Source: a phage
Sequence record: PZ402301.1
DNA length: 64,000 nt
Direction: 5' to 3' (one strand)
The position numbers and the translations under genes were made by a program. This document shows positions 2,343 to 50,514 of the stretch, in pieces (position 1 is the first letter of the stretch; the number at the start of each line of letters is the position of its first letter). The notes below the pieces were generated by a model. That model was not told where the DNA came from. It did no database searches and worked only from the letters and a program-made list of their open reading frames with translations.

Positions 2343-4322
2343 ATGACTTTATTATCTCCGGGCATTGAGCTCAAAGAAACTACGGTTCAAAGCACCGTGG
2401 TTAATAACTCTACTGGTACAGCAGCTTTGGCCGGTAAATTCCAGTGGGGTCCTGCTTTTCAGATCAAACAGGTTACAAATGAAGTAGATTTAGTTAATAC
2501 TTTTGGTCAACCTACAGCTGAAACTGCTGACTATTTTATGTCTGCAATGAATTTCTTACAATATGGAAATGATTTGCGAGTTGTGCGTGCTGTCGATAGA
2601 GATACCGCTAAAAACTCATCTCCGATTGCTGGTAATATTGAATACACTATTTCTACCCCAGGTAGTAACTACGCGGTTGGAGATAAAATCACAGTTAAGT
2701 ATGTTTCAGAAGACATTGAAACGGAAGGTAAAATTACCGAAGTAGATGCTGATGGAAAAATTAAGAAAATTAATATTCCTACTGCAAAAATTATCGCTAA
2801 AGCGAAAGAAGTCGGTGAATATCCAGCATTAGGTTCTAACTGGACCGCGGAAATTTCTTCGTCTTCCTCTGGTTTAGCTGCAGTAATAACTCTTGGAAAA
2901 ATTATTACTGATTCCGGTATTTTATTAGCTGAAATTGAAAATGCTGAAGCTGCTATGACAGCTGTTGACTTTCAGACAAATCTCGAAAAATATGGAATTC
3001 CAGGAGTAGTAGCTCTTTATCCAGGCGAGTTGGGCGATAAAATCGAAATTGAAATCGTATCTAAAGCTGACTACGCAAAAGGTGCTTCTGCATTACTCCC
3101 AATTTATCCAGGTGGCGGAACACGCGCATCTACTGCTAAGGCAGTGTTTGGATATGGACCACAAACTGATTCACAATACGCTATTATAGTTCGCCGTAAT
3201 GATGCTATTGTTCAAAGTATTGTTCTTTCAACAAAGCGTGGTGAAAAAGACATTTATGACAGTAACATCTATATTGATGACTTTTTCGCAAAAGGCGGTT
3301 CAGAATATATTTTCGCAACTGCACAAAACTGGCCAGAAGGATTCTCCGGAATTTTAACTCTGTCTGGTGGATTATCGTCAAATGCTGAAGTAACAGCAGG
3401 AGATTTGATGGAAGCCTGGGACTTCTTTGCTGACCGTGAATCTGTTGACGTTCAGTTGTTTATTGCGGGTTCTTGTGCCGGTGAATCTTTAGAAACAGCA
3501 TCTACTGTCCAAAAACACGTCGTTTCAATTGGGGATGCTCGTCAAGATTGCTTAGTATTATGCTCACCACCGCGTGAAACTGTAGTTGGAATTCCTGTAA
3601 CTCGCGCTGTTGATAACTTAGTCAATTGGAGAACTGCAACAGGTTCATACACTGATAATAACTTTAATATCAGTTCAACCTACGCAGCAATTGATGGTAA
3701 CTACAAGTATCAGTATGACAAATATAATGATGTGAATCGTTGGGTTCCATTAGCAGCTGATATTGCTGGTTTATGTGCAAGAACCGATAACGTTTCTCAG
3801 ACTTGGATGTCTCCAGCTGGTTATAATCGTGGTCAGATTCTTAACGTTATTAAACTTGCTATTGAAACTCGCCAAGCTCAGCGTGACCGTTTATATCAAG
3901 AAGCTATCAACCCGGTAACCGGTACAGGTGGTGATGGTTACGTATTGTATGGTGATAAAACAGCTACTTCTGTTCCTTCTCCATTTGATCGTATTAATGT
4001 TCGTCGTCTGTTTAATATGTTGAAAACGAATATCGGACGTAGTTCAAAATATCGTTTGTTCGAATTAAACAACGCGTTTACTCGTTCATCATTCCGCACA
4101 GAAACTGCCCAATACTTACAGGGAATTAAAGCTCTCGGTGGAATTTATGAATATCGTGTAGTTTGCGATACAACAAATAACACTCCGTCAGTAATTGATA
4201 GAAATGAGTTTGTTGCAACATTCTACATCCAACCGGCTAGAAGCATTAACTACATTACCTTGAACTTCGTAGCAACTGCTACAGGTGCAGATTTCGATGA
4301 GTTAACTGGTCTTGCAGGTTAA
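2343..4322 (+). CDS. 18: tail sheath protein gp18
   Basis: 659 aa, same as T4 gp18; gene order 17-18-19. Confidence 0.93.
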   Translation: MTLLSPGIELKETTVQSTVVNNSTGTAALAGKFQWGPAFQIKQVTNEVDLVNTFGQPTAETADYFMSAMNFLQYGNDLRVVRAVDRDTAKNSSPIAGNIEYTISTPGSNYAVGDKITVKYVSEDIETEGKITEVDADGKIKKINIPTAKIIAKAKEVGEYPALGSNWTAEISSSSSGLAAVITLGKIITDSGILLAEIENAEAAMTAVDFQTNLEKYGIPGVVALYPGELGDKIEIEIVSKADYAKGASALLPIYPGGGTRASTAKAVFGYGPQTDSQYAIIVRRNDAIVQSIVLSTKRGEKDIYDSNIYIDDFFAKGGSEYIFATAQNWPEGFSGILTLSGGLSSNAEVTAGDLMEAWDFFADRESVDVQLFIAGSCAGESLETASTVQKHVVSIGDARQDCLVLCSPPRETVVGIPVTRAVDNLVNWRTATGSYTDNNFNISSTYAAIDGNYKYQYDKYNDVNRWVPLAADIAGLCARTDNVSQTWMSPAGYNRGQILNVIKLAIETRQAQRDRLYQEAINPVTGTGGDGYVLYGDKTATSVPSPFDRINVRRLFNMLKTNIGRSSKYRLFELNNAFTRSSFRTETAQYLQGIKALGGIYEYRVVCDTTNNTPSVIDRNEFVATFYIQPARSINYITLNFVATATGADFDELTGLAG

Positions 4323-25524: not shown

Positions 25525-25531
25525 TTTGTGT

Positions 25532-25585
25532 TCCTCATGTTATGTCAGTAAGATTATTATAACACAATACGAGGGACTTGTAAAC
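25532..25585 (-). promoter_or_regulatory. early promoter cassette (copy A of 54-bp repeat): GTTTAC -35, 18-nt spacer, TATAAT -10, leader with GAGGA
   Basis: Minus strand reads GTTTACaagtccctcgtattgtgtTATAATaatcttactgacataacatGAGGaacacaaaATG; 51/54 identical to 41303-41356. Confidence 0.6.
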
Positions 25586-33720: not shown

Positions 33721-34098
33721 TTAAATATCAAATTCATTAAGAACTACATCAAAGATCGCTTCAAGATGCTCAGGTTTAGCTCTGTTACTCAGAATATGAC
33801 GAATCCAAGTTTTAACCAGAAGCTTACGATTGACGCCATTCCAGCAAGGATGAGTACCTAAATCGCGTTGACGGAAATCATCATCTAATGCGATTTTAAA
33901 AGAAGAATCTTCTTTCGTGATTGAAACCGTGATGCCATTTTCAAATCGCATATAAACGTAGTTAGGAGTCATATACTGTTCAATTTCGCATACTGATCCA
34001 TTTTGATGTTTCCAAAGGCAGATAGTATCAATAGAACCTGCAATACCGTTAGAAACATATTTACGTTCAAAGTTGATGTAGTTCATTTTATTCTCCAA
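33721..34098 (-). CDS. 30.6: hypothetical protein (positional 30.6)
   Basis: 125-aa ORF. Confidence 0.6.
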   Translation of the reverse strand: MENKMNYINFERKYVSNGIAGSIDTICLWKHQNGSVCEIEQYMTPNYVYMRFENGITVSITKEDSSFKIALDDDFRQRDLGTHPCWNGVNRKLLVKTWIRHILSNRAKPEHLEAIFDVVLNEFDI

Positions 34099-34111
34099 GA
34101 TGTTTAATTGC

Positions 34112-34151
34112 GGTACAGGTATATAATATCATATCCTGTACCAAAGTAAAC
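34112..34151 (-). promoter_or_regulatory. predicted early promoter (GTTTAC -35, 17-nt spacer, TATTAT -10) overlapping an 8-bp inverted repeat GGTACAGG/CCTGTACC
   Basis: Minus strand: tGTTTACtttggtacaggatatgaTATTATatacctgtacc, upstream of 30.6 RBS. Confidence 0.5.
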
Positions 34152-34153
34152 AA

Positions 34154-34486
34154 TTATTTTACTACTTTCCAGTGCTGCATGTCAAGTTTACCAACTTTTT
34201 TCATCTTCTCAATTAAGCGTTCTGCACGTTGGCGAGCTGTAACATAATACCATTCGCCTAATTCATTTTGTTCAATTTTTCCAACGATTACTGTATTCAA
34301 TTCATAAATCCAACCAGTAAAGAAATTATGAACTTGAATTGTAAAGGTGAAATCTGTTCCCATACCTTCTGTTGTTTCTACTTCAATAATATCACCTTCA
34401 ACTGCCATTAAGAACCACATAGTTTCGTTATATTCACCATTGAAACATTTAGCTTTAACCGCAGCGTTCAGATTAATCGTTTTCAT
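34154..34486 (-). CDS. 30.7: hypothetical protein (positional 30.7)
   Basis: 110-aa ORF. Confidence 0.6.
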   Translation of the reverse strand: MKTINLNAAVKAKCFNGEYNETMWFLMAVEGDIIEVETTEGMGTDFTFTIQVHNFFTGWIYELNTVIVGKIEQNELGEWYYVTARQRAERLIEKMKKVGKLDMQHWKVVK

Positions 34487-34564
34487 TTTATTCTCCTTTG
34501 TTTGTGTAAGATAATACTATCACAAAGGAACCATACTGTAAACAACTTTGTGCAATCTTTGGAA

Positions 34565-34591
34565 AATAAAAAAGGACTCCCGAAGGAGTCC
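34565..34591 (-). terminator. rho-independent terminator (minus strand): GGACUCC-UUCG-GGAGUCC followed by U-run
   Basis: 7-bp stem, UUCG loop, then UUUUUUAUUUU on the minus transcript; 6 nt after stop of the small basic ORF. Confidence 0.65.
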
Positions 34592-34596
34592 TCAAC

Positions 34597-37217: not shown

Positions 37218-37450
37218 AGTACGCCATACACCCTTTGTGCTTCAACTAATCCATCAAAATCCAGTTTAAGATGTGTTATTTGGTCACCATCACCTGGATT
37301 CACAATTACTAATACTGAACGAGGAGTTTCGGTAATAACACGAACCGATGTTTCTGGAAATCGTTCAGAAACCTTATTTACCAATTCCTGAGCAAATAGT
37401 TTAACTTTTTCTTGGAATTCTTTAACAGTAATTGGTTTTTCACTTAGCAT
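37214..37450 (-). CDS. cd.2: hypothetical protein (positional cd.2)
   Basis: 78-aa ORF. Confidence 0.55.
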   Translation of the reverse strand: MLSEKPITVKEFQEKVKLFAQELVNKVSERFPETSVRVITETPRSVLVIVNPGDGDQITHLKLDFDGLVEAQRVYGVL

Positions 37451-37971
37451 GTTGATCCTAGCTCCTTACTTTCAACGTTTTTAACTAATTTGACAGAAAC
37501 TAATTCAGCATCTCGGGTAATCATTACCGGACCTTCTTCATACTCTTCAAGATATTCTAGAGCTTTCTTTTTAGCTTCTTCCTTCGTATCAGTTTGAGCA
37601 TAGATATAGAACATACAACCAGTAATACCTACTACTTTCCACTTAATTTCTTTATCAGCTTTAATTTCAAATTTACTTGTAGAATCATCTTTTTGAACTT
37701 CTTCGAAAAAAGAATATTCTAACATATAAGCAATTGAAAATAACGGGCTAACTTTATAGGATTCACCCATTACATCAACAGCTTTATACCAACAATCATC
37801 AATTTCACGTTTAATGCTAATAACATTTTTCGCAGGATCTATTTTTACTTTAAATGAATTTTCCCCAATAAACTGGGCAATTCGTTTATTAGCCCCGCAA
37901 GTTTCATTAAAAATATCTTTATATCCAGCTTTAAAGCGATAAACCTTATCTTCTTCAAACCATTCGCTCAT
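37444..37971 (-). CDS. cd.3: hypothetical protein (positional cd.3)
   Basis: 175-aa ORF. Confidence 0.6.
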   Translation of the reverse strand: MSEWFEEDKVYRFKAGYKDIFNETCGANKRIAQFIGENSFKVKIDPAKNVISIKREIDDCWYKAVDVMGESYKVSPLFSIAYMLEYSFFEEVQKDDSTSKFEIKADKEIKWKVVGITGCMFYIYAQTDTKEEAKKKALEYLEEYEEGPVMITRDAELVSVKLVKNVESKELGSTC

Positions 37972-37991
37972 TTCAATTTCCTCATTTGTTT

Positions 37992-38021
37992 TGGTAGAGC
38001 TATAATATCACAACTCTACCG
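37992..38021 (-). promoter_or_regulatory. predicted early promoter (GTTTAC -35, 18-nt spacer, TATTAT -10) overlapping inverted repeat GGTAGAG/CTCTACC
   Basis: Minus strand: aGTTTACtttacggtagagttgtgaTATTATagctctacc upstream of cd.3. Confidence 0.45.
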
Positions 38022-38033
38022 TAAAGTAAACTA

Positions 38034-38309
38034 TTAAATTGCTTTGAATTCTGATGTCTGTGATTCAAAGCGAATATCGCCTTTTATGACTAGCTCAGCG
38101 TCAAGACCGAATACGACAATAATATGAGCAGAACCTGGATACAGAGTAATTGCAATAGAATCCACCTGGTCTGGAAGCAAAGTATTCAATACATGAGTCA
38201 CTTGAGCATGAATTCGAAGCTCAGCTGCATTATCAAGCTTTTCAAACATATTATTAGCGATAATTTGGCTAAACACTACTTCTACGATTTTAGAATAAGT
38301 CGGAAACAT
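38034..38309 (-). CDS. cd.4: hypothetical protein (positional cd.4)
   Basis: 91-aa ORF. Confidence 0.55.
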   Translation of the reverse strand: MFPTYSKIVEVVFSQIIANNMFEKLDNAAELRIHAQVTHVLNTLLPDQVDSIAITLYPGSAHIIVVFGLDAELVIKGDIRFESQTSEFKAI

Positions 38310-38702: not shown

Positions 38703-39927
<1,225 letters not shown>

Positions 39928-41298: not shown

Positions 41299-41302
41299 AA
41301 AG

Positions 41303-41356
41303 TCCTCATGTTATGTCAGTAAGACTACTATAACACAACACGAGGGACTTGTAAAC
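41303..41356 (-). promoter_or_regulatory. early promoter cassette (copy B of 54-bp repeat) upstream of alc
   Basis: 51/54 nt identical to 25532-25585; GTTTAC -35 at 41351-41356, -10 TATAGT, leader GAGGA. Confidence 0.55.
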
Positions 41357-49714: not shown

Positions 49715-49768
49715 TTTATTCTCCTTAGTTGATAGGGTAATAGTATCATACTACTACCCTTCTGTAAA

Positions 49769-50134
49769 CTACTTTTTGAAAGTTTTTCGCAAAAGTTCAA
49801 TGATTTCATCTACATTGTTTTCGTCTACAATGCAGTGAATTTTTGTTACGCCAGAAACCTTGTCTTTGACTTCATCTTCTTCAGAAGTCGATTCTTTATA
49901 CTCGCGAAAACAATGAAATTCGTCTTCACAGACGTTGAAGTAAAAATGCTTTCCATTTGCGCATTCAATGTGTTTTATTACTCTAAATCCATCAGCAAAG
50001 AAAGCTTCTTTAACTTCAAACCATCCGCCATTATCTCGAATAGCTTTAACTATTGATGAATTAGAACGCGGGCGATAATTAATAAATGTATCAATAAGTC
50101 TTGGAACAAGTTCATATTTTCTACCAATATACAT
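49769..50134 (-). CDS. hypothetical protein
   Basis: 121-aa ORF with several Cys/His (HIECANGKHFYFNVCEDEFHCF). Confidence 0.5.
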   Translation of the reverse strand: MYIGRKYELVPRLIDTFINYRPRSNSSIVKAIRDNGGWFEVKEAFFADGFRVIKHIECANGKHFYFNVCEDEFHCFREYKESTSEEDEVKDKVSGVTKIHCIVDENNVDEIIELLRKTFKK

Positions 50135-50406: not shown

Positions 50407-50514
50407 GTTATTTTCCTCTTTAATCATCATCAGCAGTATTGCCGATAGTTGTATAGTACCACAGTATGCTTTGGTTGTAAACCGTTTTGTGAAAAAATTT
50501 TTGAAATAAAAAAA

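Follow-up and report, generated by a model that had tools for sequence, protein, structure and literature searches.

The window analyzed here, a 64,000-nt stretch of phage DNA (PZ402301.1), belongs to a Tequatrovirus by sequence comparison and shows ∼98% identity to phages EO1 and WL-3. Its early genes lie on the minus strand, the coding strand in what follows. Two intergenic cassettes, sites 1 and 2, are our main subject, and the 6-kb stretch round both is 96–98% identical to many Tequatrovirus genomes (EO1, WL-3, IME339 and others). Comparison with annotated relatives and with T4 shows that site 1 separates gene 30.8 from gene 30.7 and that site 2 comes directly after cd.3. Site 2 corresponds to the T4 early promoter Pe133295, named in the T4 record. 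Both cassettes are identical in the T4 sequence. The intergenic spaces measure 67 nt (site 1) and 62 nt (site 2), and in each the -35 element begins 2 nt past the stop codon of the upstream gene. Coordinates are given in Table 1.

Table 1. Features of sites 1 and 2 and of further early-promoter cassettes in the window
Feature	Position	Strand	Remarks
Gene 30.8 ORF	34154-34486	minus	TAA stop 2 nt before site-1 -35
Site-1 -35, GTTTAC	34146-34151	minus	identical in T4
Site-1 stem-loop, arms GGTACAGG (34142-34135) and CCTGTACC (34119-34112)	34111-34143	minus	RNA 14 bp, one bulged A, loop AUAU
Site-1 extended -10, TGaTATTAT (hexamer 34123-34128)	34123-34131	minus	17-nt spacer from GTTTAC
Predicted transcription start, site 1	34114-34116	minus	∼7 nt past -10, inside 3' arm; from the σ70 spacing rule
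SD GGAG (34096-34093) and ATG (34086-34084) of gene 30.7	34084-34096	minus	gp30.7 homologue
cd.3	38034-38309	minus	TAA stop 2 nt before site-2 -35
Site-2 -35, GTTTAC (Pe133295)	38026-38031	minus	
Site-2 stem-loop, arms GGTAGAG (38020-38014) and CTCTACC (37999-37993)	37993-38020	minus	RNA 12 bp including 3 G·U, loop AUAU
Site-2 extended -10, TGaTATTAT (hexamer 38002-38007)	38002-38010	minus	18-nt spacer
SD GAGG (37983-37980) and ATG (37971-37969) of 175-aa ORF	37969-37983	minus	
175-aa ORF	37444-37971	minus	ORF213 of Yersinia phage PST; absent from T4
Cassette before gene 30.8, promoter start 34543; 3' arm ACAAAGGA contains SD	34493-34543	minus	-12.1 kcal/mol, z = -2.6
Early promoter, -10 within 14-bp hairpin (AGGGTAGTAG.../...TACCCT)	49731-49769	minus	-16.2 kcal/mol, z = -4.1
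Early promoter, long hairpin enclosing -10 and reaching SD	41300-41356	minus	-24.4 kcal/mol, z = -5.4
Paralogue of the 41356 cassette (3 mismatches over ∼52 nt), different gene behind	25530-25585	minus	-15.2 kcal/mol, z = -4.3

Predicted promoters and the inverted repeats around them

Both sites carry the elements of the T4 early consensus (GTTTAC, a 17–18-nt spacer, TGn, TAttAT and an AT-rich upstream region), the AT content upstream being 0.70 at site 1 and 0.63 at site 2 when measured in the T4 copies. By this match, sites 1 and 2 are predicted T4-type early promoters of the σ70 type, with transcription predicted to start at ∼34116 and ∼37995, respectively. The distance from the -10 element to the SD/ATG is 26 nt at site 1 and 18 nt at site 2. 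A mirror-image promoter on the plus strand (GTTTAA-N16-TAATAT, 34102–34129) was set aside for its poor hexamers and spacing. This weak promoter-like site arises from extension of the palindrome to TGTTTA/TAAACA and is probably meaningless.

A sequence-only reading of the window had located inverted repeats at 34112–34142 (site 1) and 37993–38020 (site 2) and had placed the -10 element of a σ70-type promoter within each. Those coordinates proved exact, and both TATTAT hexamers do lie between the arms. On the plus strand, the site-1 arms are GGTACAGG (34112–34119) and CCTGTACC (34135–34142), separated by 15 nt, and the site-2 arms are GGTAGAG (37993–37999) and CTCTACC (38014–38020), separated by 14 nt. 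The same reading put the stems at 7–8 bp. Perfect arms of that size are present, but the stems predicted for RNA are longer, at 14 and 12 bp, and are capped by a 4-nt loop. Since most of the supposed loop is itself paired in RNA, the -10 element is divided between the apical loop and the upper stem, one half in each.

The computed RNA folds are stable (-16.1 kcal/mol, z = -5.9 for site 1; -16.3 kcal/mol, z = -5.4 for site 2), and at neither site was any of 200 dinucleotide shuffles as stable. When 110-nt read-through contexts were folded in silico, the hairpin was kept and the SD remained unpaired at both sites; the earlier suggestion that read-through RNA would fold immediately ahead of the following ribosome-binding site is thus borne out by the predicted hairpins. 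RNA beginning at the predicted start is unstructured, with computed energies of 0 kcal/mol (site 1) and -1.4 kcal/mol (site 2). As single-stranded DNA the hairpins are weak, at -8.4 kcal/mol for site 1 and -5.0 kcal/mol for site 2, the latter with a 12–14-nt loop. A search of the whole window against Rfam 15 at the gathering score returned no matches.

Spread and conservation of the arrangement

The window contains eight minus-strand promoter candidates with a perfect GTTTAC, for which the repeat lengths are 5, 3, 6, 6, 7, 8, 8 and 6. In six of the eight, then, the -10 element is spanned by a repeat that reaches 6 bp or more. The background, calculated with the same search geometry at any position of the window, is 0.11 for perfect repeats of at least 6 bp, 0.034 for at least 7 bp and 0.012 for at least 8 bp, giving a binomial P value of ∼1e-4, or ∼5e-4 when two paralogous cassettes are counted once. 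A scan of 150 kb of the T4 genome, covering 34 high-confidence early promoters, found a hairpin with z < -2 enclosing the -10 element in 19 of them (mean z = -2.8), the ipII, ipIII and ipI cassettes (65413, 65799 and 73939) included. The promoter-in-hairpin arrangement is systematic and genome-wide among early promoters, and it is non-random.

This genome-wide spread had been overlooked in the sequence-only reading, as had the published name and model of the feature, PeSL. Two of the window cassettes, at 41300–41356 and 25530–25585, are direct repeats 15.8 kb apart and stand before the unlike reading frames MDLQLITTEM... and MKSSLRFLGQ....

The enclosing hairpins fall into two classes. Those of the first are short and end at about +1 to +9; they include sites 1 and 2 as well as T4 20612, 65799, 66498 and 73939, which by map position lie before genes 41, ipIII, e and 57B. 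Hairpins of the second class are long, and the SD of the following gene serves as their 3' arm, as at 34493–34530 in the window (gene 30.8) and at T4 62797 (regB), 65413 (ipII) and 8218 (dexA). A pyrimidine-rich arm in the spacer pairs with the downstream SD at window 34493–34543 and at T4 62797, 65413, 8218, 53943 and 166807. By analogy with genes e and soc, read-through RNA of this SD-pairing subclass would be translationally masked and locally initiated RNA would be free, the same logic being applied at early promoters.

Early promoters that lack such a hairpin frequently carry either a strong one ∼60 nt upstream or a small one in the interval from -35 to -10. A conserved leader, TACTATacaactatcaactactgatacgga, follows the -10 element in several of these non-enclosed promoters (window ∼50420–50482, minus strand; T4 27080, 55384, 70696, 163673 and 167086). 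It contains a 5-bp hairpin, UAUCA/UGAUA, that would be 5'-terminal in RNA initiated at that same promoter.

Conservation was assessed in fourteen related loci from viral metagenome contigs. The site-1 arms are conserved in 14/14 of these, while there is divergence, indels included, in the loop and above all in the 3' flank. Across nine aligned sequences, among them a chimeric copy from phage TuIa, 97% of arm cells at site 1 pair. The single arm substitution (locus L030) produces a G·U pair, and in the TuIa copy six of eight positions pair, three of them by G·U. All four one-sided changes give G·U, which is wobble-compatible on the sense strand only. No double-sided change occurs at site 1 in the aligned sequences; the case there is one of conservation alone.

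Site 2 behaves differently, in that four loci carry GGTAGGAC/GTCCTACC instead of the T4-type GGTAGAG/CTCTACC and one locus carries GGTGGAGT/ACTCTACC, with three pairs changed on both sides in a compensatory manner. Here 83% of cells are paired, compared to ≤64% when the partners are slid, and the observed covariation score was reached by 17 of 500 shuffles. In five loci (L033 and L036–L039) the site-2 hairpin is lost or a hairpin in the -35/-10 spacer is found instead. Its absence from some lineages indicates that the hairpin is useful rather than indispensable. Taken at the level of sequence, the compensatory and G·U-only changes indicate that pairing within a single strand is under selection.

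Proposed role of the hairpins and alternative readings

Our preferred reading, to which we give a probability of roughly 0.6, is that both sites are T4-type early promoters in composite PeSL-like cassettes, where the hairpin would form an intercistronic barrier in RNA and the cassette would also be a gene-exchange junction. Host σ70 RNA polymerase would use GTTTAC, TGn and TATTAT and would start ∼7 nt past the -10 element. As this predicted start lies inside the 3' arm, locally initiated mRNA would be free of the hairpin, with an open leader and an accessible SD. Transcripts from upstream early promoters, by contrast, would contain both arms and fold into a 12–14-bp hairpin, positioned a few nt past the upstream stop codon and 10–15 nt before the next SD. 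Upstream of site 1 the closest early promoter is at 34543, and upstream of site 2 it is at 41356. The terminator scan found no terminator-like site between these promoters and the respective hairpins, and read-through RNA should therefore reach both. We infer that the hairpin acts at the RNA level as an intercistronic barrier, one that would protect or define the 3' end of the upstream message (30.8 or cd.3) and mark read-through transcripts. Pausing at the hairpin is possible; classical intrinsic termination is probably not its function.

The hairpin would overlap the promoter because promoter and ribosome-binding site together fill the whole intergenic space of 62–67 nt. Such compaction would mean that the overlap arises where the gap from stop codon to -35 is short; the median gaps, 3 nt versus 13.5 nt, amount to no more than a trend (P = 0.29). 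The conserved cassette would in addition double as a junction at which homologous recombination adds, removes or exchanges small neighboring genes.

Several comparisons bear on whether the pairing matters in RNA. Among the T4 cassettes, sense RNA is more stable than antisense (z = -2.8 versus -1.5, P = 3e-5). Internal G·U pairs number 28 in sense and 5 in antisense, or 20 versus 11 once pairs from the TGnTAnnnT core are removed (P = 0.13). Since the G·U asymmetry comes mostly from that core, it lends weak support to an RNA-level role and does not prove one. Stronger support is provided by the sister class in which a spacer arm is complementary to the SD, as such complementarity makes sense only in RNA.

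The PeSL authors' own view is that the stem-loops are true terminators or attenuators, which would halt incoming read-through and leave each small gene to be transcribed from its own promoter only. In their work, a phi1 PeSL stem-loop cut lacZ expression about as much as rrnB T1 (PMC2839356). In the SA20RB record both sites bear the label 'terminator' on the strength of WebGeSTer and TransTermHP calls. Among other depositors, site 1 is entered as a 'terminator' and site 2 as a 'terminator' overlapping an early promoter. In addition, a fresh promoter start comes directly after each hairpin. Automatic tools, in other words, call the same bases both 'terminator' and 'promoter', a point of some importance for annotation. 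However, no U-tract follows the hairpin at either site, the tails being GCAAUUAAAC and AAAACAAAUG, and terminator activity of the phi1 type is for this reason not expected at sites 1 and 2. In T4, all 19 hairpins that enclose a -10 element have at most four T among the 9 nt that follow. A consensus terminator scan passed over both sites, yet called a UUCG terminator at 34572–34593, 400 nt away. T4 early and delayed-early expression, moreover, relies on long read-through transcripts (PMC2988021). We consider it unlikely that the stem-loops terminate transcription. The element at 34572–34593 (minus strand) is a canonical intrinsic terminator, GAGGACTCC-TTCG-GGAGTCCTT followed by TTTTATTTT, and lies just upstream of the 30.8 promoter, an example of how a genuine terminator appears in this part of the window.

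A second alternative is that the inverted repeats act as DNA, with the hairpin, a cruciform or the conserved cassette serving as a recombination site (PeSL exchange, mini-circles) and no RNA role at all. Several observations link the cassettes with gene exchange. ORF213, the 175-aa ORF, stands directly behind the site-2 cassette in the window and in PST; in T4, which lacks this ORF, cd.2 is joined to an identical cassette immediately past the SD. The 30.7 promoter of TuIa is chimeric, its 5' half resembling the ipII cassette and its 3' half being that of the 30.7 cassette. TuIa has a separate canonical terminator as well. A motB-like cassette (GGGAGCA...TGCTCC) is found before three different genes in related phages. 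For RB49 and phi1, formation of mini-circles is demonstrated in the experiments described in PMC2839356, and the near-identical cassettes 41356 and 25585 of the window are direct repeats of the kind proposed as substrates for PeSL-mediated deletion or mini-circles. The association with insertion, deletion or replacement of genes is thus seen at site 2 (ORF213) and, indirectly, at site 1 through the chimeric TuIa cassette. None of this calls for complementary arms, however, as the conserved promoter core suffices for homologous recombination. The hairpins are weak as DNA (-5 to -8 kcal/mol), central spacers of 14–15 nt disfavor cruciform extrusion, the compensatory and G·U-only changes suggest selection for pairing in one strand, and SD pairing in the sister cassettes would have meaning only in RNA. 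We regard a purely DNA-level role as quite improbable.

Several further observations concern these junctions. Chimeric early promoters are present in L003 (TuIa, AJ621579) at 78–125 and in L034 at ∼3597–3650, with an ipII-like 5' half (CTCCTGTAGG) and a 30.7-like 3' half (ACTTGTACC), which suggests crossovers inside the promoter core. The 175-aa ORF at 37444–37971 (minus strand) overlaps the start of cd.2. Another ORF that is absent from T4, of 106 aa at 39607–39927 (minus strand), corresponds by position to PST ORF218. In many phages BLAST homology starts exactly at GTTTAC, as though site 1 were a recombination breakpoint; we rejected this lead, as related loci carry a divergent 30.8 homologue upstream.

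In the T4 record (NC_000866), the 14 nt between the site-2 arms (133300–133313, equivalent to window 38000–38013) are flagged 'inverted complement of previously reported sequence'. Queries with inverted-loop versions of the two sites against the phage collection yielded no inverted copy among 461 and 476 matching records; the best full-length identities, 93.9% and 95.7%, were to the normal orientation. Loop inversion as a switch was accordingly rejected, and the flag looks like an old sequencing or cloning artifact caused by the palindrome.

The complementarity could also lack function, arising incidentally from the partial self-complementarity of the T4 -10 consensus (uGUGAUAUUAUa) together with descent of the cassettes from one duplicated ancestor. 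The upper stems are indeed made of consensus promoter bases, which largely explain the G·U asymmetry, several cassettes are clear paralogues (in the window; T4 123093 and 136336), and the site-2 hairpin is missing in some lineages. Against this, the lower arms, which are GC-rich, form no part of the consensus and vary from one cassette to another but are still complementary, the z-scores were measured against dinucleotide shuffles of the same bases, site 2 shows double-sided changes, and the site-1 arms are invariant beside positions that diverge. These data make an absence of function distinctly unlikely.

The protein-binding DNA palindrome raised in the sequence-only reading would, in a more specific form, be an operator through which a dimeric protein of phage or host shuts the early promoter off. 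This is the least probable reading of all: we know of no candidate repressor, and the arms vary from promoter to promoter (GGTACAGG, GGTAGAG, AGGGTA, GACAAGACTA, TCCTAGAATTGTGA and others), which leaves no common operator. Perfect arms do flank the -10 element, those of site 1 are strictly conserved, and the idea is attractive because two reviews call early-promoter shut-off unexplained (PMC2988021, PMC3014915), but ∼20 cassettes share no arm or half-site sequence, the arms of site 2 covary and its DNA hairpin is weak, spacers range from 8 to >25 nt, and ∼15 of the 34 T4 early promoters have no repeat, yet all are shut off. We judge an operator to be very improbable.

A bolder conjecture is that the hairpins constitute a genome-wide code that labels early mRNAs by their start, read-through copies being structured and, in about half of the cassettes, having a sequestered SD, with neither feature in locally initiated copies. 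Under such a code, how each small early gene is translated and how fast its message decays would depend on its own promoter, and the hairpins would form part of the rapid early shut-down. We think it unlikely that this conjecture is right.

More broadly, these T-even early promoters appear as composites that fit a promoter, an RNA structure and a recombination junction into ∼60 nt. In phage engineering, altering the promoter spacer will alter the RNA hairpin too. In terms of genome evolution, the cassettes are swap points for the small accessory genes of T4-like phages.

Comparison with known systems

Intrinsic terminators resemble sites 1 and 2 in that a cistron ends with a stable hairpin containing GC pairs; unlike them, both sites lack a U-tract, and transcription is predicted to restart inside the hairpin. 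In E. coli REP elements and in the hairpins at T7 RNase III sites, stem-loops located after a stop codon can block 3'-exonucleases and give cistron-specific stability. The position after the stop codon is shared with the hairpins described here, whereas overlap with a promoter is not a feature of those stabilizers, and a stabilizing role at sites 1 and 2 is putative. Early promoters of phage N4 contain a DNA hairpin that the virion RNA polymerase recognizes on extruded DNA. There, too, promoter and inverted repeat coincide, but T4 early promoters are standard duplex σ70 promoters. Closer to the present locus, Truncaite and co-workers (2006, Virology 344:378) reportedly found a conserved stem-loop and early promoters in the same 30.x regulatory region, and the TuIa record from that work annotates stem-loops.

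Translational control by a promoter inside a hairpin is established for T4 e, soc and I-TevI (PMC3014915). As in those genes, the promoter lies within the 5' half of the hairpin, with upstream-initiated RNA folded and local RNA not. Their promoters are late or middle, however, and their hairpins sequester the SD or AUG, whereas the SD is unpaired at sites 1 and 2. Sequestration of the e type is present in neighboring cassettes (34493–34530; T4 regB and ipII).

The flanks of T-even ip genes carry elements that combine a T4 early promoter with a stem-loop and are described as AT-richer, weaker and variable in size (Repoila et al. 1994, as summarized in PMC2839356). The present sites are likewise based on T4 early promoters, but in that summary the elements are described at ip loci only.

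The closest match is PeSL. In the sections of Arbiol et al. (2010; PMC2839356) that define it, the PeSL of phi1 and RB49 consists of an AT-rich region, a σ70-type promoter, a stem-loop, an SD and a start codon. The subclass met most often in these phages has its stem-loop either in the -35/-10 interval or across the -10 itself. The experiments reported there demonstrate promoter activity, strong termination by one phi1 stem-loop and the mini-circles mentioned above. Comeau et al. (2014; PMC4122927), in the portion on PST and T4, extended PeSLs to these phages with the consensus TTTACW-N17-TAYWAT, to which site 2 conforms exactly; site 1 has N16 in that register. Differences remain: the stems shown for phi1 and RB49 are runs of G and C (GGGG...CCCC), whereas those here have arms of mixed sequence and an upper stem of AU and GU pairs, and the PST stem-loops in the drawings of PMC4122927 lie just upstream of the promoter, not round the -10. 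Matched on the class features given in those sections, both sites are instances of the described PeSL-type element and are not new. They share with it promoter, stem-loop, SD and start codon in one intergenic cassette, the link with small variable ORFs, and the character of a repeated motif, with six cassettes in the window and 19 in T4.
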